Positions 1 to 64,000 of a DNA stretch of 64,000 bases are shown here, in pieces. Within the stretch, counting starts at the first letter, position 1. Every line of letters starts with the position of its first letter. The stretch is from the NCBI GenBank assembly GCA_039985875.1, contig JBDWRU010000010.1:7266-71265 (forward strand). The letters run 5' to 3'. Position numbers and translations under genes: made by a program. Source of the DNA: Erythrobacter sp. Its GTDB lineage: Bacteria; Pseudomonadota; Alphaproteobacteria; Sphingomonadales; Sphingomonadaceae. The notes under the pieces were generated by a model that did not search any database, was not told the origin of the DNA, and saw nothing but the letters and a program-made list of their open reading frames with translations.

Positions 1-840
1 CCGGCACAAAAGAGAGACCTCTCCAGATTCATCGAGGCACAATCCAAAGAGATTGAAGCTCGGAATCGTTCGATCAAAGAATATCAGCAAAAAACTACGG
101 CTCTCGAAAGTGAAAATACGGGCCTCACGCAGCAACTAAGGACTGAAAAGAAAAAGCGCTACTATGCTGAGGCGCACCTCAAAAGCGACGACAAACGCTT
201 TCAAGAAATTCACCATCACATCAAGATTTTGACTGACATTGTCTCTGGCGAACTCGATGAGATCGATGAGCGCTATCAGAAGGACAATTCAATCAAATTG
301 GGAGACGTTATGGACCACGTGCGGGCTGCGCGTTTCCAAAGCCAAAAGATGATGACGTTATCTCAGATCATAACGAAATCGGACTTCGACATGATGACCG
401 ATGAGTCCCGTCATGATTTCTTTGATGCAATCTCAGGCTATCTGAAATTGATGGGCGAGATAAATGGCGGTTGGAACATGAACATCGAGTTCCACAACCC
501 GCGTGGTGTAGAACTGATTCTGAATTTCAGCGCGATTGAGCAGGCTATTCTAGTCGACAATATCTTGAGCAACTCGGTCAAAGCCAAATCAAAGAACGTT
601 ACCATCTCGGTTGCTGAAACAGATGAAGCTTACGAATTGATGTTTGCCGATGACGGTGATGGACTGACAAAAAAATACAAACCAGAGGAACTCTTCTCCG
701 CCGGGATCAGCACGACCAGAAGAGGCTCTGGCACTGGCCTCAGCAATGTTTTGGATATTGTGCAGCGGCTCGAAGGCAACGTGGAGATCATCAACGTGAA
801 GCCCAAAGGGGCGTGTGTCAGAATCTGGTGGGGTAAATGA
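1..840 (+). CDS. Sensor histidine kinase, C-terminal ~280 aa (5' end lies outside the window)
   Basis: Frame 1 has no stop from nt 1 to 840; the track entry 229..840 only marks an internal TTG. nt 1-228 translate to a coiled-coil-like stretch (SKEIEARNRSIKEYQQKTTALESENTGLTQQLRTEKKK), then an H-box-like FQEIHHHIKILTDIV. N-box LVDNILSNSVKA, G1 DDGDGL and G2 GSGTGLSNV indicate HATPase_c. Confidence 0.8.
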   Translation, partial: PAQKRDLSRFIEAQSKEIEARNRSIKEYQQKTTALESENTGLTQQLRTEKKKRYYAEAHLKSDDKRFQEIHHHIKILTDIVSGELDEIDERYQKDNSIKLGDVMDHVRAARFQSQKMMTLSQIITKSDFDMMTDESRHDFFDAISGYLKLMGEINGGWNMNIEFHNPRGVELILNFSAIEQAILVDNILSNSVKAKSKNVTISVAETDEAYELMFADDGDGLTKKYKPEELFSAGISTTRRGSGTGLSNVLDIVQRLEGNVEIINVKPKGACVRIWWGK

Positions 841-1826
841 GACTCAACTACAATGTCCTTTGGATCGACGACAATATTGACTCCTTAAGGGCCTACAAGA
901 AGGCCTTGGAGGAAAAGAATGATCAAATCGGCATCCGCACGAAACATGTTGATGTGCCGGTAAGGATGGGCGCTCGAGAGAACCCTGACGAGCATCAAGC
1001 CCGAGTGAGCAAGGACATTGAGAAGGCTCTATCTGATCAGGTGTTCGAGCTGATTGTTGTCGATCTTCATATGACGGGAAAGAACGGGGGATTTGATGGT
1101 CCTGATATCATCCAGTTCATTCGTGATACGCAGAAGATATTTCGCCCAATCGTCTTTCATTCAGGAGGAGATCAGTCGCTTCAAGCAACCGCCACTGAGC
1201 AGCTAAATGAGCGCGCTGAAGAAAAGGGTGTCTTTGGCAAGAGCATTTTCATCTCTCCCAAGGACCGATTGTCCAACATGCTCTCTGATATTGTCGGAGA
1301 GATGCATGAGAACGAGCATCAGATAAATCAGGTTCGTGGAACGCTCATGGACTGCGTCAGTGAAATTGATGCTCAGATTATCGATGTGATGACGAGTGGA
1401 GAGGTTTGGGATCAGGTGCCCGAGACCTCTCGCGAGGCCGCCCTGAAGAAATTTAAGAGTTTGATCGACTCACAGCGGAAGAAGGCTGAGAAGCAGCACG
1501 AGCATGTCAAAGGCATGAGCTACGATGAAGTTCGTGAATATGTCTTGGACGATCCAAAGAACGTCTCAACCTTTGTTAAAACCAAGCTGCTTCGAGAGCT
1601 GGCGAAGAAGATTCCCGAAATTAAAGATGCGGGAGACACTCTTAGCGCGTTTATAGCAACGAACGAGGGCGCTCCTGAATGCTTGAATGAGATTAGAAAC
1701 AAATATGCCCATCAAACAGCAGTTCAATTAGCTGCCAACCACAACGATGATCATTGCACTCACATTCGGCGCGAAGCCCACAAACATACTGACAATGTGA
1801 TTTCGTTGCGAGAAAGCCTGAAGTGA
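837..1826 (+). CDS. Response-regulator receiver domain fused to a HEPN-like (Rx4H) C-terminal domain
   Basis: 329-aa ORF with an ATGA overlap with the kinase gene. The N-terminus has NVLWIDDN, ELIVVDLHM (Asp76, nt 1062-1064), IVFHSGG and ISPK, a CheY-like receiver signature. The helical C-terminal region carries NEIRNKYAHQ (R287-x4-H292, nt 1695-1712), the RNxxAH form of the HEPN Rx4-6H motif. The receiver call is firm; the HEPN call rests on motif and position only. Confidence 0.7.
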   Translation: MRLNYNVLWIDDNIDSLRAYKKALEEKNDQIGIRTKHVDVPVRMGARENPDEHQARVSKDIEKALSDQVFELIVVDLHMTGKNGGFDGPDIIQFIRDTQKIFRPIVFHSGGDQSLQATATEQLNERAEEKGVFGKSIFISPKDRLSNMLSDIVGEMHENEHQINQVRGTLMDCVSEIDAQIIDVMTSGEVWDQVPETSREAALKKFKSLIDSQRKKAEKQHEHVKGMSYDEVREYVLDDPKNVSTFVKTKLLRELAKKIPEIKDAGDTLSAFIATNEGAPECLNEIRNKYAHQTAVQLAANHNDDHCTHIRREAHKHTDNVISLRESLK

Positions 1827-2263
1827 AGACTGTACTGTTCGACATCGATGGAACATTAGCGGATATCGAACATCGCAGGCATTTGGTCGAAGGCGACAAT
1901 CCTGACTGGGCCAAGTTCTTTGACCTTATGGGGTCGGATTCAGTGAACCTGCCAGTTGCAGAGCTTTATCTCGCACTTTGGTCGTCAACCTCCTTCGAAT
2001 GTGTGCTCGTCTCTGGTCGTCCTGAAGAGTACCGGCCTGTTACCGAGCAATGGCTGACTTGGAATGAGATACCATTTAATCGATTGCTTATGCGCCGCGC
2101 CAAAGACAACCGTAAAGATGCGATAGTGAAGGAGGAAATCCTAAAACAGCTTCTGAGCGAAGGCGCTGACATAGCATTTACAGTCGATGACCGCCAATCG
2201 GTAGTGAATATGTGGCGGCGCAACGGGATAACTTGCTTTCAATGCGCGGAATACGAAGGCTAG
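1823..2263 (+). CDS. HAD-superfamily phosphatase, polynucleotide kinase 3'-phosphatase-like (PNKP-C type)
   Basis: 146-aa ORF whose GTG start overlaps the upstream stop (GTGA, 1823-1826). HAD motifs: I FDIDGTL, II LVSGRP, III Lys in RKDAIVKEE, IV TVDDR. Its small, cap-less size resembles phage/bacterial PNKP phosphatase domains. Confidence 0.65.
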   Translation: MKTVLFDIDGTLADIEHRRHLVEGDNPDWAKFFDLMGSDSVNLPVAELYLALWSSTSFECVLVSGRPEEYRPVTEQWLTWNEIPFNRLLMRRAKDNRKDAIVKEEILKQLLSEGADIAFTVDDRQSVVNMWRRNGITCFQCAEYEG

Positions 2264-2509
2264 TCGATCGTGGTGCTTACCCTTGGGTCCGCCTTGAGTG
2301 AACCCAACCCGCAAGTGCGGTTTCGGCTATACAGCCTCAATCCTTGGTGCGGGCTTTGGAGCAAACCCCTCTGCGCACTCTTTTTCGCTTCGGACAGTCG
2401 GACGGTCCCCTTGGTCCTCTCAAGCAGCTGTTGAAGGGACACTAGTTTGTGTCTGCTTTCGGGAATTTAGATTCTGGATGGCTATGTCTTGGATTGGGGC
2501 GCATTGCGG

Positions 2510-3064
2510 TCATTCGCCGAAGTAGCTCCACCATTGCGGCCATGATGCTTTGTGCGGTGTCCGCGTTGCGCTCCAAACCACGCGCTGCTCATCTGGCTGG
2601 AGCTGTCGATCATCAAGTCGAGCGAGTGCAGCTTCGACGATCCAAGGATTGAGCTCCCATTTGGCGCGCGCTTTATCAGCAGGGTACTTTAACTTCGCGA
2701 TACGCAGCGGTTCTAGAATGCTATCTGCGCCAGAGCTTATCGGTTGCAAGACTAGCTTGGTTATCTGTTCGACATCATCACCACGGACTGCCCGTGCGCG
2801 TTCGATTGCTTCGAGCGAAGCCCGCGAAGCAGCGCTGTCCCCCGCCAGCCCTTTTTGAGTGAGTTGGAGCAAAAACGCCTCGGCTGCCGTGACGCGCCGT
2901 TTGCGGCCATCTTCGCGGATCGTGACCATTTGACCGAGTACAGTATCATAGGGGATCTCGCGCTTGCGGTTCTTCGGACGCCCCCGCGGATTGCCCGACT
3001 TACCTTTGCGGAACCGGGTGCCCGTTGGTGGTTGCTTGTAGCCGATGGGCTCTGGGTCACTCAT
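2510..3064 (-). CDS. DUF5681-like protein (paralog 2)
   Basis: 184-aa ORF. Its N-terminal FRKGKSGNPRGRP motif is shared with the adjacent paralog. ATGA overlap (3061-3064) with the upstream gene. Confidence 0.6.
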   Translation of the reverse strand: MSDPEPIGYKQPPTGTRFRKGKSGNPRGRPKNRKREIPYDTVLGQMVTIREDGRKRRVTAAEAFLLQLTQKGLAGDSAASRASLEAIERARAVRGDDVEQITKLVLQPISSGADSILEPLRIAKLKYPADKARAKWELNPWIVEAALARLDDRQLQPDEQRVVWSATRTPHKASWPQWWSYFGE

Positions 3065-3579
3065 TCAATCCGCCCTCGCGGCCAGCCCAGAGTGTCCGAA
3101 GCGTTGGTAAAGAACTTGATCTGCTCGACGTCCATCTGACTGAACTTGCTTCGGCCCGGCCTGCTGAGCGCCGCTTGCGTTGCCCATGCGTTGACCTTCC
3201 AACGATTGGGGTGCCCAGGATCAGGGGCAGCAATGCCTAGGATCCGCATGGCTTCATTGGCATTGTTAGATGAGTGAGCTCTTTCGATCGCGATGGGCCT
3301 TGGTCCAAGTCCATTCTTCTTTGCCAACGCAGCTTCGCGTTTCTCGATCATCTTGAGAACCTTGCGGATCGCCATGCGCTTGCCTGCGAGCGCGCCTTTG
3401 AGCGTCTGCTGCTGCAGTACTTCTTCAACCGTTAGTTCCCGCTCCTTGCCTCCCACTGTAGCGGTGACGCGTTTATCGAGCACGATTTCGAACGCCGACA
3501 CGTTCGGACGACGCGGCTTGAGTGGGCGTCCCTTGGGATTGCCTGACTGGCCAGGCTTGAACCTCGTATCCTTGCTCAT
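3061..3579 (-). CDS. DUF5681-like protein (paralog 1)
   Basis: 172-aa ORF with an N-terminal FKPGQSGNPKGRP motif. Its start overlaps the stop of the methyltransferase gene (3576-3579). Confidence 0.6.
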   Translation of the reverse strand: MSKDTRFKPGQSGNPKGRPLKPRRPNVSAFEIVLDKRVTATVGGKERELTVEEVLQQQTLKGALAGKRMAIRKVLKMIEKREAALAKKNGLGPRPIAIERAHSSNNANEAMRILGIAAPDPGHPNRWKVNAWATQAALSRPGRSKFSQMDVEQIKFFTNASDTLGWPRGRIE

Positions 3580-4871
3580 GCAACGTCCTCGCGATGGAAC
3601 AGCTCAGGCTCCTTGCCAGTCAGGTCACTCCAGCGCTGCATGGCAAGATCAACATAGGCCGGATCAAGATCGAGCCCGCGGAACCTTCTTCCCACGCGCT
3701 CAGCAGCGATCAAGCTCGTTCCTGAGCCCAAGAATATATCGAGCACCAGCTCGCCTTGCTTGGTCACATCGCAATAAGCGTCAGCTACCATTGCTACCGG
3801 TTTGACCGTTGGATGCAGCGCAAGGTCCTCGCGGCGCGAGCCCATCATCGAGTTCACGCTCGGATAATCCCAGACATTGGTGCGGTTGCGTCCGTGCTTA
3901 CCGAGTTCCACATTGTTTGTGTGTGACTGGCTGCCCACTCGGTAGACGAACACCATCTCGTGCTTAGATCGATAGAGCGAGCCCATCCCGGCATTGCTCT
4001 TGTTCCACACGCATATGTTGAGAAGGTCGTCATAGACGCCCTCAACTGATGCAGTAACATCGTCCATGTGTCGCCAGTCCATGCACACAAAGTGCACCGC
4101 TCCGTCGCGCGATACTTTCGCGCAAGCGCCCAGCGTATCAGTGAGGAACCTGCGGAACTCAATGTCGCTCATTTCGCCCGACGCCATCGCAAACTCACGG
4201 TGCCGACCTTTGGCGTTGGCGTGGCCGTTGATCTTCACATTGTAGGGTGGATCGAGGAAGCCGCAGTCGATTGTGTCGCCTTCACCGACAAGGAGTTTGA
4301 GGAATTCGATATCGCGCCCATCGCCGCAGGCCACGCGGTGTTCGCCAAGCTGCCAGATATCGCCGACCTGCACGCGAGGACTTTCCGGCACAGCCGGTAT
4401 CACCTCGTCGGCCGGGTCCTCGGCTTCAGAGAGAACGACGTCGATCTCGCCGGGGCTGAACCCTGTGAGTCCTAGGTCGATGTCAATTTCGGGAAGCGAG
4501 AGTTCGGCCAGTTCGAGCTTGAGTATCTCGGTGTCCCAACCTGCGTTTAGCGCAATTTTGTTATCGGCGATCCGAAGCGCTCTCTTCTGCGCTTCAGATA
4601 AACCTGTCAGTTCGATCACCGGAACCTCAGCAAGCCCCATCTCTTTGGAAGCGCGCAATCGGCCATGGCCTGCAATGAGATTACCGTCCGGGTCGGTAAG
4701 GATCGGGTTGGTAAAACCAAACTCATTTATTGAAGCGATGATCTGTTCGATCTGCCTCTTGGAATGCGTACGCGCATTGCGGGGATCAGGAACAAGGCTC
4801 GAGACCATCTTATAGGCGACGGCGAGTGGGCGATTGGCAGTCTGGATTGCCTGAGGGGGTTCAGTAGTCAT
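3576..4871 (-). CDS. ParB-like nuclease domain / N6- or N4-DNA methyltransferase fusion (orphan MTase)
   Basis: ParB/Srx-like N-terminus (LVPDPRNARTHSKRQIEQIIASINEFGFTNPIL...GHGRL). Catalytic DPPY (GFLDPPYNV) and AdoMet motif LDIFLGSGTS. Start moved to ATG 4871 (MTTEPP) from ORF-track 4922. Confidence 0.8.
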   Translation of the reverse strand: MTTEPPQAIQTANRPLAVAYKMVSSLVPDPRNARTHSKRQIEQIIASINEFGFTNPILTDPDGNLIAGHGRLRASKEMGLAEVPVIELTGLSEAQKRALRIADNKIALNAGWDTEILKLELAELSLPEIDIDLGLTGFSPGEIDVVLSEAEDPADEVIPAVPESPRVQVGDIWQLGEHRVACGDGRDIEFLKLLVGEGDTIDCGFLDPPYNVKINGHANAKGRHREFAMASGEMSDIEFRRFLTDTLGACAKVSRDGAVHFVCMDWRHMDDVTASVEGVYDDLLNICVWNKSNAGMGSLYRSKHEMVFVYRVGSQSHTNNVELGKHGRNRTNVWDYPSVNSMMGSRREDLALHPTVKPVAMVADAYCDVTKQGELVLDIFLGSGTSLIAAERVGRRFRGLDLDPAYVDLAMQRWSDLTGKEPELFHREDVA

Positions 4872-5061
4872 ATTTGAACAATACAGGAACAACCAAACTA
4901 AACCCAAAAGTGGGTGGGTCAATATTTGGGGAAAAACCGTTTATAATCAGAACTCGCTGGACTTCGCGCAACTCTCGAGCATTGCTGTGTGTGCCCGGCG
5001 AGCCGGGCTCGTGCCGGTAGCGGTCGCCATTTCGGGCGACTGCATCAACCGGAGAACACGC

Positions 5062-5286
5062 ATGACAGACCCCAAAAAGACCAAAACGCCAACCAAGCTC
5101 GACGCAATTGAAAAGCTGCTGAAGCGAAAGAATGGCGCGTCGATCACCGAATTGATGAAAGCCACAGGCTGGCAACAGCACTCAGTTCGAGGCGCGATGG
5201 CAGGCACGCTCAAGAAGCGCGGCGTTATTATCACATCCCAGAAGGTGGACGCGGTGCGCCGTTACTTTGCCGAGAAGTCGGCATGA
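5062..5286 (+). CDS. DUF3489-family small protein
   Basis: KLDAIEKLLKRKNGASITELMKATGWQQHSVRGAMAGTLKKRG. Start placed at ATG 5062 behind GGAGA (5051-5055). ATGA overlap with the next gene. Confidence 0.6.
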   Translation: MTDPKKTKTPTKLDAIEKLLKRKNGASITELMKATGWQQHSVRGAMAGTLKKRGVIITSQKVDAVRRYFAEKSA

Positions 5287-5699
5287 TAGATAAGGACAGC
5301 GAAGCCACACAGCTCGTCAAGGCAATCGAGACAATGGAGCTAGAAGCCGTGCGCTCATTGTGGAGGCAGAGTTTCGGCATCCCTCCATCCTTGCGCTCCG
5401 CCCCCCTCATGCGAATGCAGCTTGCGTGGCGCGTGCAGTGCGAGGCTTTTTGCGGACTTGATACCGAAACGCGCAAAGCTCTTACCCGAACCGGTGCAGC
5501 CCAACCCGAAGGACGTCAACTTGGCATTGGCGCGATCCTAACCCGCAACTGGAAAGGCCGTGAGGTGCAAGTTGTAGTCGAGGACAAGGGCTTTCGCTGG
5601 GAAGGCGATCTTTACCCCAGCCTCTCCGCTGCAGCCTCTGCAATCGCTGGGAGCCGGTGGAACGGGCCAAGGTTCTTTGGACTCAGGGGCACCGCATGA
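5283..5699 (+). CDS. DUF2924-family protein
   Basis: 138-aa ORF in the classic position between DUF3489 and a serine recombinase. It overlaps the recombinase start (ATGA, 5696-5699). Confidence 0.6.
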   Translation: MIDKDSEATQLVKAIETMELEAVRSLWRQSFGIPPSLRSAPLMRMQLAWRVQCEAFCGLDTETRKALTRTGAAQPEGRQLGIGAILTRNWKGREVQVVVEDKGFRWEGDLYPSLSAAASAIAGSRWNGPRFFGLRGTA

Positions 5700-7285
5700 C
5701 CAAGAAAAAAGCAGTGGTTCGCTGCGCGATCTACACCCGCAAAAGCTCGGATGAAGGTCTTGAGCAAGAGTTCAACAGCCTCGATGCTCAGCGCGCAGCG
5801 GGCGAAGCATACGTCACCAGTCAGGCAAGCGAACGCTGGGTCGTCATTCCAACACTTTATGATGACGGTGGTTATTCTGGCGGGACGATGGAGCGTCCTG
5901 GCTTGCAGGCGTTGCTCAGCGACATCGAGGCCAAGCGGATCGATGTAGTGGTTGTCTATAAGATCGACCGGCTTACTCGGTCACTCACAGACTTCTCGTG
6001 CATCATTGAGACCTTCGATAAGAGCGAGACCAGCTTTGTCTCGGTCACTCAATCGTTCAACACCAAGGACTCAATGGGCCGACTGATGCTCAATGTGCTT
6101 TTGTCATTCGCGCAGTTTGAGCGCGAAGTGACCGGCGAACGCATCCGCGACAAGATCGCGGCCTCCAAAGCCAAGGGAATGTGGATGGGCGGTAATCCGC
6201 CGCTTGGATATGACCGGCCCAAAGAAGGCACTCACAAATTGCTAGTCAATGAGGACGAAGCTGAAACTGTAAGGCACATATACAGCCGCTACCTCAAGCT
6301 TGGCTCAGTTCATGCTTTGGAGCGCGAGCTGACAGCTGCAGGCATTGTCTCCAAACTGCGGACCTATTCTACCGGCAGAACAACGGGCGGCATCCCGTTT
6401 AGCCGCGGGGCACTATTCCATCTGCTGCGCAATCCAATTTATCTTGGCAAGATCGTGCACAAGGATAAGCTGTTCGAAGGCGAGCATGACGCGATTGTTG
6501 ATCCAGATCTGTTCGAGCCCGTGCAGACCAAACTCAATGCAAATTCTCAACGCCACCGCGCTGCTGGAGAAAACCGTGTCACCAAAGCCCTGCTAACCGG
6601 CAAGCTTTTTGATGCAAATGGCGAGGCGATGAGCCCATCATTCTCGCGCGGGCGATCAGGTCAGACCTACCGTTATTATGTATCAGCCTCGCTCCAGCAA
6701 GGCGGAGCCAATCATGACGACGGGACTGTCCGCCGCCTTCCAGCATCCGCTATCGAAACGCTCGTCAATGAAACCGCGGGCCGCTGGCTACCGCACGAAA
6801 GGGTTCCGCTCGCTTCCTTGATAGCAGTGCGCATTACAGAAAATGGGCTAGTCTTCGAAGCCGATGGAAAGCTTGCCGACGGCATTACTCGGCATCTCCA
6901 AGACAGCGAACAAATCGTCTATTCCTCGGCAAAGCTCTGCCGCATCCACGTGCCCATCAGCCTTCCGCTACGAGGAGGCCAGCGGCTCATCATTGCTAAA
7001 AACAAACCCGACATCCGTCCTGATCCAGCCTTGATTGCAGCTCTGCGCCGAGCCCATTCTTTGCTTAAGCGCGACCGGCAAGGCATGCCTTTTCTCGAAG
7101 TATCACCAACACAAGCCTACAACCGCAATCTCATCCGGCTCGCATTCCTGGCACCAGACATTCAGCGCGATATTCTCAAAGGGCGCCAACCATCTTTTCT
7201 CAATCTCCAACAGCTCGTCAAAATGGACATCCCGCTATGCTGGACTGAGCAACGAAAAGTGTTGAATTGGCCAAGCTTCAACTAG
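5696..7285 (+). CDS. Large serine recombinase (resolvase/invertase N-terminal domain + recombinase domain)
   Basis: VVRCAIYTRKSSDEGLEQEFNSLDAQR contains the catalytic Ser region. Also VVVYKIDRLTRS and the LSFAQFERE motifs. 529 aa from ATG 5696. Confidence 0.85.
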   Translation: MTKKKAVVRCAIYTRKSSDEGLEQEFNSLDAQRAAGEAYVTSQASERWVVIPTLYDDGGYSGGTMERPGLQALLSDIEAKRIDVVVVYKIDRLTRSLTDFSCIIETFDKSETSFVSVTQSFNTKDSMGRLMLNVLLSFAQFEREVTGERIRDKIAASKAKGMWMGGNPPLGYDRPKEGTHKLLVNEDEAETVRHIYSRYLKLGSVHALERELTAAGIVSKLRTYSTGRTTGGIPFSRGALFHLLRNPIYLGKIVHKDKLFEGEHDAIVDPDLFEPVQTKLNANSQRHRAAGENRVTKALLTGKLFDANGEAMSPSFSRGRSGQTYRYYVSASLQQGGANHDDGTVRRLPASAIETLVNETAGRWLPHERVPLASLIAVRITENGLVFEADGKLADGITRHLQDSEQIVYSSAKLCRIHVPISLPLRGGQRLIIAKNKPDIRPDPALIAALRRAHSLLKRDRQGMPFLEVSPTQAYNRNLIRLAFLAPDIQRDILKGRQPSFLNLQQLVKMDIPLCWTEQRKVLNWPSFN

Positions 7286-7507
7286 CCTGTTCCGCTGAAT
7301 AACAGGCCTGTTAATTTGAATTCACTCCCTGTTACGGCCGAATAAATACCCTGTTATGCCGAATAACAGGGAAACCCCGATTTCCACCGCACAAGCCACT
7401 GTTATTAGGGCATTTAACGCACTGCACCTTGCTCAAAATCAGGCGTTTAAGCCTGTTTTTGGCTCGAAACAGACAAAATTCCCTGTTCTTTCCCTGTTAA
7501 ACAGGGA
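7286..7507. repeat. Array of CCTGTT/AACAGG motifs with three palindromes at the island-tRNA junction
   Basis: CCTGTT at 7286, 7307, 7328, 7350, 7452, 7482 and 7493; AACAGG at 7301, 7365 and 7500. Perfect palindromes: CCCTGTTAT-N5-ATAACAGGG (7349-7371), TCCCTGTT-A-AACAGGGA (7491-7507) and CCTGTT-N9-AACAGG (7286-7306). Confidence 0.75.
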
Positions 7508-7675
7508 AACTCTTCTGATCACGATCTGCCAAGAGACTGTGACCGCAAAACTGGCCTGTAATCCGATGAGACTGATGCAGAAGCTCACGCCAACGGCGGT
7601 TTGGTCTGCTGAAGCCTGCGCACACCGCAGCTTTGCGCAGGCGGCCTGTAAGCTGAGACTAGTGCTGGGGGTAGG

Positions 7676-7765
7676 TGGCGGAGACGGTGGGATTCGAACC
7701 CACGAAAGAGTTGCCCCTTTACACACTTTCCAGGCGTGCGCCTTCGACCACTCGGCCACGTCTCC
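7676..7765 (-). tRNA. tRNA-Ser (anticodon GGA)
   Basis: 90-nt cloverleaf read on the minus strand. Acceptor GGAGACG / CGTCTCC-G-CCA (CCA encoded) and D arm GCCGAGTGGTCGAAGGC. Anticodon stem-loop CACGC-CUGGAAA-GUGUG, a long variable arm, and T arm GTGGG-TTCGAAT-CCCAC. Confidence 0.9.
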
Positions 7766-7896
7766 GCGTTCCTATCTGCGTTACCGCTACGCTGCGTTAC
7801 CGCTAAGCTGCTTGAACGCGGCGGGCAGCAGGAACGGCGCGGATAGACTGACAAGAACCCTTTCGCAAGCGGCTTGAGAATGTCACACTGTGACTC

Positions 7897-8976
7897 ATGA
7901 AAAAACTCCTCCTCACTGCCGCTTGCGCCGCCGCACTTACCTTGCCTGTCCAAGCGCAGACCGAAGCCCCAACTGAGCCCGTAGGCGCGCCCTCACCCAA
8001 TGAAATCGTCGCTTTGGCTGCGCCTGAGGAATGGTTGACGATCCCAGCGGAAGACTTGCTGGTGATGACACTCGCGCCGGATGCGGCGGGCAAGGAACGC
8101 GAAGTCATAATCCAATTGATGCCCGCGCCCTTTTCGCAAGGGTGGGTTGAGAATATCCGCACCCTCGCCCGCGCCAAATGGTATGACGGGATCACCGTCA
8201 ACCGCGTGCAAGACAATTACGTCGTGCAATGGGGCGATGCCGGCCACGACAACCCCGAAAGCGGCGAGACTGAGACCAAGCCTTTGCCTGAAGGGCTTAA
8301 GGTGATGGGCGAGGATGACTACGTCGAAGAAACGTTTGTAATGGAAGGCGCTACGGACAAAGAATACTTGTATTGGCGCGCTTTGCTCGTCGGCCTATGG
8401 GCTTCGGGGACAGATGATGATGTTATCGAAACTCTTCCGCCAATGGCTCAAGCGGACGCTCGGAAAGCAGCATTAGCTGACAGATATTCTGGGGTAACAA
8501 GCTATTCACGAGGCTGGGCATTTGCTGGAAAGCCTGGAGAGGTTTGGCCAGTTCACTGCTATGGTATGGTCGGTGTTGGTAGGAGCTATTCGCCTGACAC
8601 GGGCTCCGGCGCAGAGCTTTATACCGTGATCGGCCACGCCCCGCGTCACTTGGATCGCAATATCGCGCTCGCCGGGCGGATCATTAGCGGGATTGAGCAT
8701 CTGTCTTCATTGCCGCGCGGTTCAGGCGCGCTGGGTTTCTACACCGACGATGAAAAGGAGCTTCGAACACCAATTCTGTCAGTGCGCGTCGCCAGTGATT
8801 TGCCCGGAGCAGAGCAACCACGGTTCGAATACCTTTCAACCGAAAGCCACTCATTCGGTGAATATGCTAAATCCCGTGCGAACCGCCGCGATCCGTTCTT
8901 CATCCAGCCCGCAAGCGGTGCAGATATCTGCAATATCCCAGTGCCCATTCGCGATGTGGAACTGGAGGCCCCTTGA
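7897..8976 (+). CDS. Secreted cyclophilin-type peptidyl-prolyl isomerase-like protein
   Basis: Signal peptide MKKLLLTAACAAALTLPVQAQ. Cyclophilin-like blocks ITVNRVQDNYVVQWGD and GMVGVGRSYSPDTGSGAELYTVIG...LDRNIALAGRIISG. Confidence 0.6.
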   Translation: MKKLLLTAACAAALTLPVQAQTEAPTEPVGAPSPNEIVALAAPEEWLTIPAEDLLVMTLAPDAAGKEREVIIQLMPAPFSQGWVENIRTLARAKWYDGITVNRVQDNYVVQWGDAGHDNPESGETETKPLPEGLKVMGEDDYVEETFVMEGATDKEYLYWRALLVGLWASGTDDDVIETLPPMAQADARKAALADRYSGVTSYSRGWAFAGKPGEVWPVHCYGMVGVGRSYSPDTGSGAELYTVIGHAPRHLDRNIALAGRIISGIEHLSSLPRGSGALGFYTDDEKELRTPILSVRVASDLPGAEQPRFEYLSTESHSFGEYAKSRANRRDPFFIQPASGADICNIPVPIRDVELEAP

Positions 8977-9308
8977 CTGAAAGGTTTTCCGCCACCCTTC
9001 CCTTGCGCCGATGGAACGGGGATCGCGGCACCTATCATCTGGTCGAATTCGACGGCGAGCACGCGGGAACCATTTCCACCCACGCGACGCTTCACCGCTT
9101 GGAATTCGGCAAACAACGCGGCTTTGGCTCGGTGAAATGCTATGCGACGATTGGCGACACGCGCTGGAAGACGAGCGTGTTTCCAATGAATGTCGATGAC
9201 ATGGCGAAGCGCACCAAGAACTGGACTCTGCTCGTTAACAAAAAAGTCATGCGGGTCGAGGATTTGGCTGAGGGAGATGCGGTCAATGTCGAGCTCGAAT
9301 TGCTCTAG
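8973..9308 (+). CDS. DUF1905-family protein
   Basis: 111 aa, with GSVKCYATIGDTRWKTSVFP typical of DUF1905. 4-nt overlap with the upstream gene. Confidence 0.55.
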   Translation: MTERFSATLPLRRWNGDRGTYHLVEFDGEHAGTISTHATLHRLEFGKQRGFGSVKCYATIGDTRWKTSVFPMNVDDMAKRTKNWTLLVNKKVMRVEDLAEGDAVNVELELL

Positions 9309-15352: not shown

Positions 15353-16060
15353 ATGGTTCCTGTTTCGTTCGCACCCTTGGAATTCGCTGGCGAAGAGCTT
15401 GTTCTACTCAAGAACAACGCGCTTTATTGGCCGCGTGAACGCGCGCTATTGGTGGCGGACCTGCATTTGGAAAAGGGAAGTTGGTATGCCCAAATGGGTC
15501 AGATGCTCCCGCCCTATGATAGCCGCGAAACATTGGAGCGGTTGGCAGATGCCGTGAAGGCGACAGGCGCGCGTCGGGTCATCACTTTGGGCGACAACTT
15601 CCATGATGATGCGGGCACGTATCGGCTGGATGATTATGCGTGCGGCATGCTCGAATCGCTGATCCGTACGCTCGATTGGGTTTGGATCTCCGGCAACCAT
15701 GATGAGCATATGCATCGCGGTTTTGGCGCGAATGTTATGGATGAAATTGAGATCAACGGGATCGTGCTGCGCCACGAAGCCAAGCGAGGGGAGACGCGCG
15801 CGGAGGTTTCCGGGCACTATCACCCCAAGATGCGCCTGCGGGTCAGGAACCGCCATATCGCCCGGCCATGCGGCGTAGTGAGTCGACAAACGGGGCGCGG
15901 TGACAGGATGATTGCCCCGGCTTTCGGCGCCTACACGGGCGGGATGGATGCAGCGGCACCAGAGATCCTGCATGCACTCGGACCTGCGGGTGAAATCGAC
16001 GCGGTTCTGCCCGCAAAAGGCAAATTGGTCACATTCCCTCTTTATCGGGAAGCCGCATAA
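15353..16060 (+). CDS. pdeM: Ligase-associated DNA damage response metallophosphoesterase PdeM-like
   Basis: ALYWPRERALLVADLHLEKGS, ITLGDNFHD and ISGNHD are calcineurin-like phosphoesterase motifs in the PdeM arrangement. Confidence 0.65.
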   Translation: MVPVSFAPLEFAGEELVLLKNNALYWPRERALLVADLHLEKGSWYAQMGQMLPPYDSRETLERLADAVKATGARRVITLGDNFHDDAGTYRLDDYACGMLESLIRTLDWVWISGNHDEHMHRGFGANVMDEIEINGIVLRHEAKRGETRAEVSGHYHPKMRLRVRNRHIARPCGVVSRQTGRGDRMIAPAFGAYTGGMDAAAPEILHALGPAGEIDAVLPAKGKLVTFPLYREAA

Positions 16061-16158
16061 GACTCTTCACTGGTATTTTTACCCGATATTCCCTACATAG
16101 CGCCCATCAAACAGGCTGAATCAGGAGAAACCACATAGCCCGTCCACCCCGGCGTTCG

Positions 16159-16677
16159 ATGGCCCCGCCAACTAAAAGCGGCCCTCGCTACGATCAGTTT
16201 ATTCAAGTTCCCAAGGTCCGCGTTATCGATGACGAAGGCGAGAACCTTGGTGTAATGTTCACCAACGAAGCGGTTGAGCAGGCCCAAGAAAAGGGTCTGA
16301 ATTTGGTCGAGGTATCGCCCAATGCCGATCCGCCTGTGTGCAAGTTCCTTGATGTCGGCAAATATCGTTACGAAGCGCAGAAGAAAGCCAACGCAGCGCG
16401 CAAAACGCAAAAGACGCAGGACATTAAAGAGGTCAAAATGCGTCCCAATATCGACACGCATGATTATGACGTGAAGATGCGCAACGTGAACAAGTTCATC
16501 GACAATGGCGACAAGGTGAAAGTGACTTTGCGTTTTCGCGGGCGCGAAATGGCGCACCAACATCTGGGTATGGACTTGCTCAAGCGGGTTCAGGAAGATG
16601 TTGAGGAAACCGCTAAGGTCGAAGCTTTCCCAAGGCTCGAAGGCCGTCAGATGCTGATGGTGCTCGCGCCGAAATAG
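16159..16677 (+). CDS. infC: Translation initiation factor IF-3
   Basis: [57 protein letters not shown]. Confidence 0.9.
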
Positions 16678-16700
16678 TTCGGCCAGAATGGTAAAGGTTG

Positions 16701-16733
16701 AGCGGGCACCAGCGATGGTGGCCCGCTTTTCTT
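16701..16733 (+). terminator. Rho-independent terminator after infC
   Basis: GCGGGC(ACC)...(GGTG)GCCCGC hairpin at 16701-16727, followed by TTTTCTT. Confidence 0.7.
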
Positions 16734-17006
16734 AATTTTGAATCGCATCCGACCAACTGCAATCGCAATCGACAAACAGTAAAATGAAACCGATTGGCGG
16801 TCTCAATCGTATAGTTTTGTGTGCTATAAGAATAAAACGCGGCGAGGTCGGCATTCCCCGAATTGCGACCCCGTCGACCCGCCGCGAACTCACGCCAAAC
16901 GGCGCCACGATGACGAAAATACAATGTGCAGCTGCGCATTCTACTCTTACCCGATTGCGATAGGTTTGATAGAATGCGTGCCGCACAAATAGGAGGAAAT
17001 GAGGTC

Positions 17007-20984: not shown

Positions 20985-21725
20985 TCACCACATCTTGCCC
21001 GGCTTTCGCTTGTAAGAATGCAAGTCCCCGCCCGAAATGCGATCCCAGAACTGCCCGCCGACCATCTGTTCGGCATCGTAGGTTTTAACCAAGAAGCTCT
21101 CCAAATCAGCAGTCTGTTTCTTGTTCGGAATTTCAAACGTCCATAGCCGGAACCGGCCCCTTTTATTCTCGACGAGAACGCTCTTGATAAAGGCATGGGG
21201 CACCGGAACGCTGATCCCAAAGGCCTCCTGTTCTTTGCCGATCCGCTCCACCTTCTCTCCAAAGTAGAACACTGGACAAGTCAGAACGTAAGTCTCAGCT
21301 GTGCTGTCCCGTTCATCAAGAACCCGAATTTCCTCTTCGAGCTTTTTCCAAATGCCCCGATTAAATCGTGGCCGCTGCGGTGACATGTTCGAGAGTAGAA
21401 ACGTTTCCGAGTTCTGGATATCCTGCAAATCTTGGTTTGCGCTGGCGACCAAATGCCCACGATCAAATCCGCTGCCTTGGTACGCTTTCAAACCCGCTCG
21501 GAACCGTTTGGGTATCCTTGTGTCAGCGCGAAAATTCTCTGCACGTTCCACACCTGCAAGATCGTTTACCAATTCGCGCTCGCGATTGATGATCTCCAGC
21601 GTCCATTTAGCTTGGCGGAAATACCATGAATAACCGATAGTGAAATGTCGGCCCGTTAGAATCTGGTCGCACACCGGCGCCCCATAACGCAGCTCGCGCT
21701 GCATCTGAAATGGATCATTCAACAC
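20985..21725 (-). CDS. DNA/RNA non-specific endonuclease (EndoG/NucA family), no signal peptide
   Basis: beta-beta-alpha-Me motifs GFDRGHLVA and LSNMSPQRPRFNRGIWKKLE. The gene is AT-richer by eye than its flanks. Confidence 0.8.
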   Translation of the reverse strand: MLNDPFQMQRELRYGAPVCDQILTGRHFTIGYSWYFRQAKWTLEIINRERELVNDLAGVERAENFRADTRIPKRFRAGLKAYQGSGFDRGHLVASANQDLQDIQNSETFLLSNMSPQRPRFNRGIWKKLEEEIRVLDERDSTAETYVLTCPVFYFGEKVERIGKEQEAFGISVPVPHAFIKSVLVENKRGRFRLWTFEIPNKKQTADLESFLVKTYDAEQMVGGQFWDRISGGDLHSYKRKPGKMW

Positions 21726-22047
21726 TTAACCCTCCCCCTGACTAAAGGTCATTTTGCGCAGTGAACTCAGCAGAAAGTCGTACGAAGGGTAAGGTACTTT
21801 TTTCTATAGGGCTTGAATTAACAACATATTGGAGTCCCATCCCTGCTCCATTTCAAGCCTTCGCGTTCCTAACTGTCGTTTGCATCCACACCAAGCGGTT
21901 GCACATGAAATCAGTTGGAAGTATCTGAAGCGCATTGAACAGGTCTTGTGGTGGAGAGGCGCTTCTGCGGAGGTTAGAAGCGGGAGCCCCTGAGCCTGCG
22001 AATAGCTCCTGCCTTCCTGGGAGCGATTAATAGGAAGGTATCCGCTC

Positions 22048-40631: not shown

Positions 40632-42086
40632 TTGGGCCTAGTTAAAGGGAAATTGCCTGTCCGGCTCAAACTGATCCATGGCTTTGGCGCGGTCGCTTTT
40701 GGCGTAAAGGATGGCGGGTTCTTGTTCTTCCTGCTGTTCTATTACAGCCAAGTGCTCGGCATGGATGCTGGGCTTGTTGGATTGGTCCTGCTTGGCGCGT
40801 TGTTGCTTGATGCATTTGTGGACCCAATCATAGGATATATGTCGGACCGCACTTACACGCGCTGGGGAAGAAGACTGCCTTGGCTATACGCAGCACCAAT
40901 CCCCTTGGCTTTTGCATGGGTGATGTTGTGGTCACCGCCCGGTGGCGAAGCGCCAAGCACTATGGGCTTGCTTGGAACCATGGTGGCGGTGCGCTTGCTG
41001 TTATCCGCTTGCGAAGTGCCTTCGACCAGTCTCATTCCTGAGCTGACTTCGGACTATAATGAACGTACCACTTTGTTCCGATACCGTTACCTGTCCGGCT
41101 GGATGGGCGGCATCTTAATGATGGTGCTGGCTTACACGGTGTTTCTGCCGGGCGAAAACGGTCTGTTGGTCCAAGAAGGTTACCCCGCTTACGGAACGTT
41201 TGGCGCGATCTTGATGGTGATCGCTGTATTGGGCTCGGCAATTGGACAGCATCACGTCGTTGCAAAATTGCCAGAGACTAAGCCTCCACCTTTCAGCCTG
41301 CGCGACGCGTTTTCGGAAATCAAAGAAGCGTTTAGCGAAAAGGCATTCCTGATCTTCGCGGCAGGCGGTTTAGCGGCCTATATCAGTCAGGGAATGTCAT
41401 TTTCGATCTCAAATTATCTCAACATCTATGTCTGGCAATTGGATCGCGTAAATTTCGATTGGGCTCCAGCTTGGCTCAATGGCTTGACGGCATATCCCTT
41501 TGCTTTGGCAGTCTCCGTGGTCTTCATGTTCTTCATCGTTGGCCCGATGCATGAAAGGCTCGGCAAACCTAAAAGCGCGGCGATTGCCGCCTTACTTGCT
41601 CTCGCCATTGGCTTGACACCCTACGCTTTGTTCCTGGCCGGGTTATGGCCACAGGTTGCAGGTTTGCCGTCTACCGTTTTGTTTTACGGCTTCACGATCT
41701 TTGCCAATATGTTCGGAGTGGTCATCATGATCTCCGCTTCGTCCATGATCGCTGAAATTGTTGAAGCTTTTGAAGAACGCACTGGGCGCCGTGCAGAGGG
41801 CTCATTTTATTCAGGCAATTGGCTAGTGCAGAAATGTGCGACAGGTGTTGGCGCTGCGCTAACCGGCCAGATCGTGGCGTTTTCGCAGCTTGAACAAGGA
41901 GCCGATCCCGCAAGTGTCGCCTCGTCGGTTCTGAGCACAATGATCATCGCCTTTGGCATTGCCTCCATCGTTCTGGGCCTTGCTTGTGCGTTTTGGCTTG
42001 GTCGGTTTCCAATCAATCGTGAAGACCACGAAGCGCGCGTTGCTGCGCTTGCTGCTCGTTCAGCGTCAACAGGTAAGGCGCAATGA
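40632..42086 (+). CDS. MFS transporter (GPH/sugar-cation symporter-like)
   Basis: 484 aa with about 12 TM segments. MSDRTYTRWGRRLPW is the GPH-type loop motif. TTG start. Confidence 0.7.
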   Translation: MGLVKGKLPVRLKLIHGFGAVAFGVKDGGFLFFLLFYYSQVLGMDAGLVGLVLLGALLLDAFVDPIIGYMSDRTYTRWGRRLPWLYAAPIPLAFAWVMLWSPPGGEAPSTMGLLGTMVAVRLLLSACEVPSTSLIPELTSDYNERTTLFRYRYLSGWMGGILMMVLAYTVFLPGENGLLVQEGYPAYGTFGAILMVIAVLGSAIGQHHVVAKLPETKPPPFSLRDAFSEIKEAFSEKAFLIFAAGGLAAYISQGMSFSISNYLNIYVWQLDRVNFDWAPAWLNGLTAYPFALAVSVVFMFFIVGPMHERLGKPKSAAIAALLALAIGLTPYALFLAGLWPQVAGLPSTVLFYGFTIFANMFGVVIMISASSMIAEIVEAFEERTGRRAEGSFYSGNWLVQKCATGVGAALTGQIVAFSQLEQGADPASVASSVLSTMIIAFGIASIVLGLACAFWLGRFPINREDHEARVAALAARSASTGKAQ

Positions 42087-59983: not shown

Positions 59984-62022
<2,039 letters not shown>

Positions 62023-62060
62023 CCGCATCATTAACGCGGCGTGCCGGCGAAATCCAGCGC

Positions 62061-62699
62061 TTAGTCGTCTTTCGACAGACCCAGAACACAGATGCCGAGC
62101 AAGATTGTTGCCAGAACGCCGCTCGCGCCTGACGGCATAATACCGCCACCGGTGATCGACATGCTGAGACCATAGCTCATCACAAAGGTGTTTGTGATCA
62201 TCGCGATGACCCCAACAAGAACGGTCAGCGGGCCAATAATTTTCCCGCCTCTGCTCAAGCAGCCAAGGCCAAAGACCAATGCCGCCAGCCCAAGCAGTAT
62301 CTTGGCTGCATTGTAGATGAAGAAAGACAGGGCAACGACCGATGCTGCTACTGGCTCCAAAGCCTCAAGGTTTCCAGATGCTTCTCTAAATGGGCCAAAC
62401 TGCGTCAGGCCAATGCCGACTTGGACGACGTTCAAAACCGCGGCGAACGCGATCGCAGAGAACCCCAGCGAGTACCGCTTGGTCGTGGCAAGAGCAGAAC
62501 CCGCAAAGGCTGCGAGGATCACAAACAGCAGCCCTTCACCGCCCCATAGAATTTCGCGCGGCACCGAAACTTCGGCGATATACAACCCCGTATAAAGCGC
62601 CTGCGTAGCGGCTGCTAGCAGTAGCAATATCGCAACGATTTGAACGGTGCGTTGTTGCGTAAAATCCATGTGTGCTTCCCCTGTAATGTAATAACTCAT
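62061..62699 (-). CDS. Polytopic membrane protein (hypothetical)
   Basis: 212 aa with about 6 hydrophobic helices. The start may be Met11 (62669). Confidence 0.5.
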   Translation of the reverse strand: MSYYITGEAHMDFTQQRTVQIVAILLLLAAATQALYTGLYIAEVSVPREILWGGEGLLFVILAAFAGSALATTKRYSLGFSAIAFAAVLNVVQVGIGLTQFGPFREASGNLEALEPVAASVVALSFFIYNAAKILLGLAALVFGLGCLSRGGKIIGPLTVLVGVIAMITNTFVMSYGLSMSITGGGIMPSGASGVLATILLGICVLGLSKDD

Positions 62700-62985
62700 T
62701 TCGTTTGTTCGCGCTCGCCAGCCAAATGGTTACCGTTTGCCGAGCGAAAAATGCAAGCGGTCATTGTGTCATAATCTGACGGGATCTGATACAAACTTGC
62801 GAAATGTCGCAAAACGACAATTACTTAGATGAGTTGCGCGCTAACGGGCATGTCATAGAAAACACTAATCTTTTTGAATGGGGCCAAAGATCGCGGCGTC
62901 TAGGACGCGCCGCCACGATAACAATAAAAACATAGGGTCGCATCTGGCCTCCTCTCACAATAACAAAAATTGAGGAGAAAAACCG

Positions 62986-64000
62986 ATGCGTATAATTTTC
63001 AAAACTGCGAGCGCGATGAGCGCGATCACTGCTGCGATCTTGGCTTCCAGTCCAGCTTGGGCCGATGGCACGGCGCCTTGTAACGACGGGGCGGGCAGTG
63101 ATAGCACCGAGTGCGGCACAAACTCGAATACCGGCACGGCTAGCGATGCAACCGCGGTTGGCGATGATTCCGACGCCACCGGCAACGAGTCCACCGCCGT
63201 GGGTAATATCGCGAATGCGAGTGGTCTCGATTCCACCGCCATTGGACAACAAGCGAACGCCACCGGTGACCGCTCCACTGCTTTAGGCGAGAACTCATTC
63301 GCCACTGCCAATGACGCCACCGCGCTTGGCCAAGAAGCGCGCGCCGACTTGCTTGAAACCACTGCTGTAGGGCATGGCGCTGATGTTGGCGGCATCTCTG
63401 CGACAGCCATTGGGGCAGATTCCAACGCAGCGGGCCTTGCCTCAGTCGCGCTTGGACACAATGCCAACACAGTGAGCAGTAATTCTGTTGCACTGGGCAA
63501 TGCCAGTCTGACCAACTCCGGCGATGGCAGTGTTGCCGTTGGCGGTAGTTCAACCACGTCTGGCACCATTTCCACCGCGGTGGGCGCAGCCAGCTCCGCT
63601 TCGGCCAGCAATGCAACAGCAATCGGTGCTGGCAGCGTCGCGCAGAATTCCCGAGACACAGTGGTCGGTGCATTCGCCACGACGGGTGGTGGGTCAATCA
63701 CCGGTGGCAATATTGCGATTGGTGGAACTTCTTTCTCTTCGGTGAGCACGACCGCAGACGGCATAACGGCGACTACTACAAACACCCGAACTACGGCCAA
63801 TGGCGGCAACGCGATTGCCTTGGGTACAGCGGCCCAAGCGACCGGCTCTTCTTCAATCGCGGTCGGACAAGATGCCAGTTCATCCGGCTCAAATGGAATC
63901 GCCGTGGGCAACGGCAGCTCTTCGACAAATTTCAACGCCGCGGCGTTTGGCACTGGAGCGTCGGCTGCGGGCAACAGTTCAACTGCAATCGGAAACGGCT
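62986..64000 (+). CDS. YadA-like trimeric autotransporter adhesin, N-terminal part (runs off the window)
   Basis: Not in the ORF track because there is no stop before nt 64000. GAGGAG lies 8 nt upstream. Hand translation: MRIIFKTASAMSAITAAILASSPAWA, then 14-aa head repeats (ATAVGDDSDATGNE / STAVGNIANASGLD / STAIGQQANATGDR / STALGENSFATAND ...). It is still in frame at 63961 (SAAGNSSTAIGNG). Confidence 0.75.
   Translation, partial: MRIIFKTASAMSAITAAILASSPAWADGTAPCNDGAGSDSTECGTNSNTGTASDATAVGDDSDATGNESTAVGNIANASGLDSTAIGQQANATGDRSTALGENSFATANDATALGQEARADLLETTAVGHGADVGGISATAIGADSNAAGLASVALGHNANTVSSNSVALGNASLTNSGDGSVAVGGSSTTSGTISTAVGAASSASASNATAIGAGSVAQNSRDTVVGAFATTGGGSITGGNIAIGGTSFSSVSTTADGITATTTNTRTTANGGNAIALGTAAQATGSSSIAVGQDASSSGSNGIAVGNGSSSTNFNAAAFGTGASAAGNSSTAIGNG

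Follow-up and report, generated by a model that had tools for sequence, protein, structure and literature searches.

The opening 2,263 nucleotides of a 64,000-nucleotide stretch of Erythrobacter sp. DNA (contig JBDWRU010000010.1, positions 7,266 to 71,265; the whole stretch is called the window, and positions are counted from its first letter) carry the end of an operon for a histidine kinase, a receiver protein with a helical C-terminal domain and a phosphatase. Homologous loci lead us to predict that these genes are the tail, the 3' two-thirds, of a cassette that has four genes in this clade. Our reading is that the cassette is a horizontally acquired phage defense system that resembles restriction-modification (R-M) and signals via a phosphorelay to an RNase-like effector, and we give this reading roughly even chances of being correct. 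Gene order, translational coupling, the domain identities of the kinase, receiver, HAD_PNKP phosphatase and methylase, the conservation of residues and the genomic associations of the cassette are established here.

Results

Organization of the operon and the conserved unit

Three open reading frames (ORFs) lie on the plus strand: ORF1 (positions 1-840), which is open from nucleotide 1 and encodes the C-terminal 279 residues of the kinase; ORF2 (837-1826), which encodes a 329-residue protein with a receiver and a C-terminal helical domain; and ORF3 (1823-2263), which encodes a stand-alone PNKP-type HAD 3'-phosphatase of 146 residues. They are joined by start/stop overlaps of 4 nucleotides, ATGA at 837-840 between ORF1 and ORF2 and GTGA at 1823-1826 between ORF2 and ORF3. 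An earlier note on this DNA, made without database searches, had described the three as one translationally coupled unit. This description is borne out, as are all of the sequence motifs that it quoted for positions 1-2263, and the same 4-nucleotide overlaps occur in homologous loci, the methylase-to-kinase junction included. The guanine-plus-cytosine (GC) content of positions 1-2263 is 47.9%, compared with a mean of 55.95% (standard deviation, 1.1) over other windows of 2,263 nucleotides (z = -7.2), which places the cassette 8 points under its host. The AT-richness noticed earlier is thus real, although the value lies in the high 40s and not in the mid-40s as had been estimated by eye. Searches for promoters, terminators and repeats in positions 1-3200 and 1-9000 gave none exceeding the shuffled expectation.

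The extent of the cassette was judged from 22 distinct related loci, which we scored with hidden Markov models built from the first five. The kinase gene lies directly before the receiver gene in all loci. Of the 20 loci for which upstream sequence exists, 19 carry a gene for a C5 cytosine DNA methylase directly before the kinase gene, usually overlapping it, with E values of 5e-56 to 5e-78 against PF00145 and 7e-82 against the PADLOC model MTase_II; in the single exception, Rhizobium sp. FKY42, Vsr occupies the methylase position. A phosphatase gene is found 3' of the receiver gene in 10 of the 22 loci, or in 11 of 23 when the window is counted. The earlier note had treated kinase, receiver and phosphatase as a trio. 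Because the methylase accompanies the kinase in 19/20 loci and the phosphatase is present in 11/23, we instead regard methylase-kinase-receiver as the conserved unit and the phosphatase as an accessory. The same gene order is kept in an abundant subfamily with receiver proteins of 306 to 312 residues at about 20% identity (Bacteroidota and others), and the hosts of the cassette include Alpha- and Gammaproteobacteria, Bacteroidota, Nitrospina and Melainabacteria. The sequence upstream of nucleotide 1, whose recovery had been suggested, was predicted from the homologous loci L005 (82% identity) and L004 (67% identity): they carry the N terminus of the kinase and a methylase gene, and they predict a methylase gene upstream of nucleotide 1 in this genome as well.

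The neighborhoods of the related loci are often those of a mobile or defense island, the setting that had been proposed for the operon. Neighbors include Thoeris-like TIR and Macro genes, type I R-M, BREX genes (BrxL, PglZ and PglX-like), Mrr and PemK, along with Fic/HTH genes, integrases and a phage replication gene. Genes for Vsr or an HhH-GPD glycosylase lie close by in several loci, and these repair genes fit active formation of 5-methylcytosine; in L024/L025 and L028 the gene for the HhH-GPD glycosylase is convergent with that of the receiver. The phyletic spread is sporadic, and some copies of the cassette are fragmented. Methylase, kinase or receiver genes are split in L010 (2834-4062), L013 (7019-10974) and L023 (5713-8004), reflecting either pseudogenization or assembly errors. 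Very large ORFs stand just upstream of the cassette in L014 (911-6766; Rhizobium, 1951 residues) and L001 (1-4404; Vibrio, more than 1800 residues), and the 1951-residue Rhizobium ORF gave weak TrwB/AAA matches alone. A tblastn search of ORF2 against 72,556 plasmids gave no match.

The kinase

ORF1 matches Pfam HATPase_c with an E value of 1.7e-12, and many histidine kinase models match it too. The N-box VDNILSN, the G1 box DDGDGL and the G2 box GSGTGL are conserved over 15 homologs, with the N-box Asn and the G-x-G-L of G2 invariant in alignments of these 15 close and a further 12 wider homologs. Its identification as a histidine kinase with a coiled coil, N-box, G1 and G2 therefore stands. 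The proposed H-box FQEIHHHIK is likewise present, but conservation is restricted to its middle His, which alone is invariant in the same alignments, distant branches included. This residue (positions 214-216, plus strand; His72 of the fragment and approximately His572 of the full protein) is the sole invariant His in the DHp-like helix and is the predicted phospho-accepting His. Sequence matches in the PDB are to PhoQ, QseC and ZraS.

The window carries only the last third of the kinase, because ORF1 aligns, at 87% identity, to residues 501-779 of the 779-residue homolog at locus L005. Judged by this alignment, ORF1 is the C-terminal 279 residues of a soluble histidine kinase of about 780 residues, comprising a coiled-coil linker, a DHp-like helix and HATPase_c. 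All full-length homologs carry an N-terminal HATPase_c_3 domain of the GHKL type (E values down to 7e-26) in addition to the C-terminal HATPase_c. The N-terminal GHKL module (L005 1743-2300, outside the window) also matches the PADLOC restriction endonuclease model REase_II PDLC03419 (4e-12; profile positions 11-180 of 695), which suggests that the kinase derives from a paraMORC-type restriction enzyme whose nuclease part was swapped for a transmitter. The kinase had earlier been said to sense infection or stress. Its N-terminal sensor is a GHKL ATPase of the paraMORC type and a relative of type II restriction enzymes, which points instead to the sensing of DNA or of methylation and not to generic stress.

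Kinases of the Bacteroidota clade are longer (915 to 944 residues), with an additional conserved stretch of about 140 residues at the N terminus (GIHENNPKIH...RSVENQLLGF; L024 5183-5600, L026 5178-5600 and L028 5264-5700). We considered an HNH nuclease in this region on the strength of a weak PADLOC "HNH" match (2.6e-4) and rejected it, as there is no visible HNH motif and no relative in the PDB.

The receiver

The receiver (REC) domain of ORF2 spans positions 837-1259 (plus strand; residues 1-141), with the acidic pair Asp11/Asp12, Ser109 and, just after the domain, Lys142. The first 150 or so residues of ORF2 had been taken for a receiver with Asp76 as its acceptor, and profile searches, structural models and residue conservation agree on this. 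The match to Pfam Response_reg is weak for ORF2 alone (E = 0.028), and the model is matched by 50 of 56 and by 75 of 88 members of the ORF2 family (best, 2.7e-10), which NCBIfam response regulator models also match widely. The AlphaFold model of ORF2 (predicted local distance difference test [pLDDT] score, 83) aligns in Foldseek with the receivers of CheY, NtrX and RR468 at target-normalized template modeling scores of about 0.65 to 0.73, and its secondary structure in AlphaFold2 is (beta-alpha)5. Among 88 representatives, the predicted phospho-acceptor Asp76 (codon at 1062-1064, plus strand) is invariant (88/88), position 11 is D or E, position 12 is D or N, and position 109 is S or T. The beta5 Lys (Lys142; 1260-1262) is Arg in 75 of the 88 relatives and Lys in the window protein, which is unusual among receivers. 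As far as residues can tell, the kinase and receiver pair keeps an intact phosphorelay; the two genes are adjacent and translationally coupled in 23 of 23 loci, and phosphotransfer between their products is putative.

The receiver protein's C-terminal domain

The remainder of ORF2 (1260-1826, plus strand; residues 142-329, about 190 residues) is predicted to be an all-helical, effector-like domain with HEPN-like features (AlphaFold2 pLDDT, 88). Its candidate catalytic motif is the Rx4H sequence R287-N-K-Y-A-H292 (1695-1712, plus strand), which is near-invariant: R287 is kept in 87, N288 in 85 and H292 in 87 of the 88 representatives, some of which share a mere 15 to 20% identity. The expectation that R287 and H292 would be conserved among homologs thus held, each in 87/88. 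R167-G168, S175, D178 and R311 are likewise near-invariant. A conserved helix at the start of the domain holds R167-G168 and S175-E-x-D178, and the last helix holds C307, R311 and N320. In the AlphaFold2 models, the helix of residues 283-291 ends at Ala291, His292 opens a loop, and a long last helix spans residues 304-328; both models place three extra helices after the second long helix and before the one that carries the motif. In the survey of HEPN domains, Rx4-6H closes helix 3, the residue that follows the Arg is polar (N, D or H), and inserts are described between helices 2 and 3 (PMC3710099). The motif in the modeled ORF2 structure is placed as that description has it.

A Pfam scan of the 88 members at E <= 1 gave 20 sub-threshold matches to six HEPN-clan families, namely, Swt1 (5 matches; best, 8e-4), RiboL-PSP (5), MAE_28990 (4), Abi_2 (2), Cthe2314 (2) and Apea (2). 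One of the Apea matches is near full length (profile positions 4-118 of 136), and there is one match to DUF4145. No other non-receiver Pfam family was matched in more than 3 of the 88 members. The domain occurs solely fused to receivers. Among 1.84 billion representatives searched exhaustively by profile, it turned up in 142 clusters (50% identity), and at least 242 clusters (90% identity) came from a word-indexed search at E <= 10; neither search yielded a sequence bridge to another architecture. We found no description of a receiver-HEPN fusion in the literature, including the HEPN survey (PMC3710099) and a full-text search.

Two other output domains were considered and set aside. An ANTAR output was suggested by the resemblance of "RGLLMD" to "AKGILME"; no ANTAR family was matched by as many as two of the 88 members, and an ANTAR consensus, used as a lead and not as a rigorous test, reached about 1 bit against the profile of the domain. 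As for an HPt domain, no Hpt family recurs among the 88, Foldseek gave no match to HPt structures in the PDB, and the motif here is RNxxAH, the HPt form being HxxKG.

The phosphatase

ORF3 had been described as a minimal HAD phosphatase of the PNKP-like kind, and it matches HAD_PNKP (PF25109) with an E value of 1.9e-33 and 116 bits, well over the cutoff of 27.6. The DxDxT nucleophile motif (1841-1855, plus strand) is intact as FDIDGT at residues 6-11. Sequence matches in the PDB are to Pnkp1 (4xrp, 3.7e-17), to entry 5uj0 (3.4e-15) and to T4 polynucleotide kinase (1ltq, 3e-14), and the 4xrp and 1ltq alignments cover the phosphatase domain. By these matches, ORF3 is a PNKP-type HAD 3'-phosphatase, homologous to the phosphatase domains of RNA repair PNKP proteins.

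The surrounding island and other features of the window

The operon had been placed in an island bounded by a serine recombinase and a tRNA-Ser gene, both of which we recovered. Downstream of ORF3, Pfam and NCBIfam models identify two tandem paralogous DUF5681 genes (2510-3064 and 3061-3579, minus strand), a gene for a ParB_N domain with an N6/N4 DNA methylase (3576-4922, minus strand), DUF3489 (4987-5286), DUF2924 (5283-5699) and a large serine recombinase (5657-7285). These are followed by tRNA-Ser(GGA) (7676-7765, minus strand; found by ARAGORN, with an Rfam tRNA score of 59.5 bits), which is likely the integration site, its 3' end facing the recombinase. Positions 2264-7285 have a GC content of 56.2%, which equals that of the host flank, whereas the operon stands at 47.9%. 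The operon is foreign even within the island, because the rest of the island is host-like in composition, and the cassette looks like a separate and more recent insertion into an integrative element.

Other observations in the window concern a tandem 16-nucleotide direct repeat, CTGCGTTACCGCTACG / CTGCGTTACCGCTAAG, at 7776-7807, immediately upstream of the minus-strand tRNA-Ser gene; a thiamine pyrophosphate (TPP) riboswitch at 61915-62025 on the minus strand (57.7 bits, compared with a gathering score of 54.3); and four 1-kb bins (16001-17000, 21001-22000, 41001-42000 and 62001-63000) with GC fractions of 0.51 to 0.52 against about 0.56, which are possibly foreign or AT-rich regulatory DNA.

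Discussion

A model for the cassette

From the conserved genes and residues of the cassette we infer a model that includes the HEPN identity of the C-terminal domain, its RNase activity, the trigger, and the roles of methylation and of the phosphatase. The C5 DNA methylase would mark the host genome as self, and the paraMORC-type ATPase at the N terminus of the kinase would monitor DNA, such that unmodified invading DNA, if this is indeed what is sensed, fires the transmitter. The kinase would then autophosphorylate its invariant His (His72 of the fragment), and the phosphoryl group would pass to Asp76. Receiver dimerization, driven by this phosphorylation, could pair two HEPN-like domains and thereby complete a composite R-N-x-x-A-H ribonuclease site, and RNA cleavage would arrest the infected cell in the style of abortive infection. 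The presence of a PNKP-type phosphatase suggests that the products of the effector have 3'-phosphate or cyclic-phosphate ends. End healing of the PNKP type is known to counter cleavage by PrrC-type enzymes, and in roughly half of the systems the phosphatase may act on the 3'-phosphate or 2',3'-cyclic-phosphate ends left by a metal-independent RNase, either blocking religation of the RtcB type or helping recovery.

HEPN dimerization is under the control of a kinase module in Ire1 and RNase L. The most specific form of the model, a self/non-self system of the R-M type in which detection of unmethylated DNA is coupled by a His-Asp phosphorelay to a HEPN ribonuclease instead of to DNA cutting, would make the cassette a bacterial counterpart of these proteins, with the phosphatase stripping the 3'-phosphate against resealing by RtcB or else resetting the system. 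In this full form, we hold the model to be tentative and rather doubtful. Should it be true, it would link epigenetic self-marking, two-component signaling and HEPN-based abortive infection, which are usually studied apart. It would also show that a histidine kinase can take its input from a paraMORC ATPase, which bears on how MORC-type ATPases read the state of DNA, and it would assign a role to a widespread uncharacterized gene triad with at least 242 receiver clusters at 90% identity in several phyla. The system is compact, with three or four genes and clear positions for point mutants (His72, Asp76, Arg287/His292 and the HAD Asp).

The HEPN question and alternative explanations

Several results weigh against the defense reading and above all against its HEPN component. 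No HEPN Pfam model reached its gathering threshold among the 88 members, the Swt1 match at 8e-4 being the best. Profile searches of the PDB with two alignments yielded only a 20-residue motif match to HepS (9oij; E = 0.16 to 0.26). The isolated C-terminal model (pLDDT 88) gave nothing better than an E value of about 2 and no HEPN structure in Foldseek searches of the PDB and BFVD, and the full-length ORF2 model gave receiver domains only; in Foldseek, the domain did not behave as a four-helix up-down fold superposable on solved HEPN structures. The second acidic feature, Ex3[KR] of helix 2, is not evident, and the second long helix is poorly conserved. This feature is found in many HEPN families, not in all (PMC3710099). 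The conserved E176 and D178 fall instead in the first helix, within a motif (RG...SE.D) that has not been described for HEPN. With regard to the cassette as a whole, the window begins inside the kinase, leaving the methylase of this genome beyond the left edge; the receiver protein, the phosphatase and the C terminus of the kinase are each without a PADLOC match; and one locus, L026, has housekeeping-looking neighbors, the kind of context that the earlier note had counted against its own proposal. The profile and structure searches that it had proposed for the C-terminal domain thus gave recurrent sub-threshold Pfam matches and no fold match. What stands of its HEPN claim is the conserved Rx4H motif (87, 85 and 87 of 88) together with the sub-threshold HEPN matches; a fold match and a threshold-level profile match are absent. 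On balance, we consider that the domain is very probably some catalytic or toxic effector and not a DNA-binding output, and, with more reserve, that it is somewhat more likely than not a true HEPN RNase.

Most response regulators are transcription factors, and the cassette might accordingly be a two-component system of the ordinary regulatory sort that accompanies a C5 methylase and whose helical domain binds DNA, RNA or a partner, with no nuclease and no killing, and so tunes the expression or activity of the methylase, of the repair genes (Vsr and glycosylase) or of adjoining R-M genes. The absence of a nuclease fold in the Foldseek searches would suit such a system, as would the treatment of a related family, in the 2021 paper on that sister family, as signaling or regulatory proteins that are upregulated under stress (PMC8011034). 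However, helix-turn-helix, winged-helix, ANTAR and HPt families do not recur among the 88 members, and near-absolute conservation of R-N-x-x-A-H at 15 to 20% identity is typical of a catalytic site and not of a DNA-reading surface. We consider this explanation improbable, and it leaves both the PNKP phosphatase partner and the defense-island neighbors unexplained. Somewhat lower still is the probability that we assign to a defense cassette with a C-terminal domain of another kind, either a novel helical effector whose target is DNA, nucleotides, membranes or a host protein, or an adaptor for an unlinked nuclease, with RNxxAH having arisen by convergence. The lack of a HEPN fold and of threshold-level profile evidence speaks for it, as do the extra conserved motifs of the domain, which are unknown in HEPN, and the fact that a methylase-linked system would most naturally restrict DNA. 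The sub-threshold matches nevertheless concentrate on HEPN families, the position of the motif in the secondary structure fits the HEPN description, a PNKP-type phosphatase suits 3'-phosphate ends, and HEPN domains are already known alongside R-M systems (PMC3710099). The weak PADLOC "HNH" match (E = 2.6e-4) in the extra N-terminal region of the Bacteroidota kinases would also speak for it, but inspection of the region revealed no HNH motif and the PDB holds no relative.

Type II R-M systems show postsegregational killing, and the architecture of the cassette parallels that of R-M systems. The cassette could on this basis be a selfish addiction module of a mobile element: loss of the methylase, and hence of the element, would leave DNA unmethylated, and the kinase-receiver toxin would then kill the segregants. 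Its location within an integrative element, its foreign composition and the integrases or replication genes that adjoin it in other loci are in keeping with this idea. Some loci, however, are chromosomal with no mobility genes nearby, and the frequent BREX, type I R-M and Thoeris-like neighbors are the usual signature of a defense island. We regard addiction as an unlikely principal role, and it is also compatible with defense, as R-M systems do both. We retain the reading of the cassette as a phage defense system with a phosphorelay-driven, RNase-like effector.

Relationship to known systems

In our model, the cassette works like an R-M system but does not belong to that family: it lacks a conserved endonuclease domain, and solely the N-terminal ATPase module resembles a type II restriction endonuclease family. 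For that module, the comparison is with the paraMORC and MORC proteins of R-M systems, in which a GHKL ATPase of the HATPase_c_3 type is encoded beside cytosine methylases and Vsr and has been proposed to recognize DNA or epigenetic marks and to direct a nuclease (Iyer, Abhiman & Aravind 2008; PMC2292703). The cassette shares with them the linkage of an N-terminal GHKL ATPase to a cytosine methylase, and the N terminus of its kinase matches a REBASE-derived type II restriction endonuclease model. In paraMORC1-5, the C-terminal partner is a nuclease, TIR or helicase, whereas here it is a histidine kinase transmitter that would feed a separate receiver-effector. For the effector, the comparison set is that of Anantharaman et al. 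2013 (PMC3710099), comprising Abi_2/AbiD-F, Swt1, RiboL-PSP, PrrC/RloC and the KEN domains of Ire1 and RNase L. The likeness to HEPN ribonucleases lies in an Rx4H motif with Asn after the Arg, at the junction of helix 3 and a loop in an all-alpha domain, and in the linkage to R-M (PMC3710099); the difference is that ORF2 matches none of the HEPN families at threshold level, either in sequence or in structure.

Detocs provides a validated functional analogue, in which a kinase-to-receiver phosphorelay licenses a toxic C-terminal effector to cause abortive infection and in which the effector domains are swappable (Rousset et al., bioRxiv 10.1101/2023.01.24.525353). Both systems have the architecture of a two-component relay that gates, or here would gate, an effector carried on the response regulator. 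The earlier appeal to Detocs logic holds as a functional analogy and fails as to membership. DtcA senses via TPR repeats, whereas the kinase here would sense via a paraMORC GHKL ATPase; Detocs requires the stand-alone buffer receiver DtcB, and no locus here has a stand-alone receiver gene; and the usual Detocs effector is a PNP ATP nucleosidase, with no methylase. PADLOC 2.0.0, in which the presence of Detocs models is unconfirmed, gave generic methylase and REase_II matches alone for the cassette proteins. A HATPase/REC system shown in Fig. 6F of the DefensePredictor study (PMC13092281) was considered as well; it appears to be of the TPR/PNP, Detocs-like type and not the present cassette.

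The earlier note knew of no experimentally characterized trio of kinase, REC-HEPN and phosphatase. A family close to the cassette has in fact been described bioinformatically, without effector or function, by Bellieny-Rabelo, Pretorius & Moleleki in 2021, who reported kinases with HATPase_c_3, HEF_HK and HATPase_c beside Response_reg_2 proteins and C5 methylases, and their relation to paraMORCs (PMC8011034). That description is of "two-component-like elements" and names no output domain, HEPN-like motif, PNKP phosphatase, defense mechanism or function. In both families, a C5 methylase is followed by a soluble kinase (HATPase_c_3, a DHp-like helix with a core His, and HATPase_c) and then by a receiver-like protein, and both are sporadic in Proteobacteria and Bacteroidetes with R-M neighbors. 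They differ in that the residue after the core His is H, L, Q or I here compared with Glu or Asp in HEF_HK, and PF19191 (HEF_HK) gave no match at E <= 1 for ORF1 and five homologs or at E <= 0.1 for three further homologs. The receivers differ too, as those here match PF00072 (75/88) and match PF19192, the Response_reg_2 model, weakly in 2 of 88 (E of about 0.01 to 0.04). On these sequence comparisons, we treat the present family as a sister family of HEF_HK/Response_reg_2.

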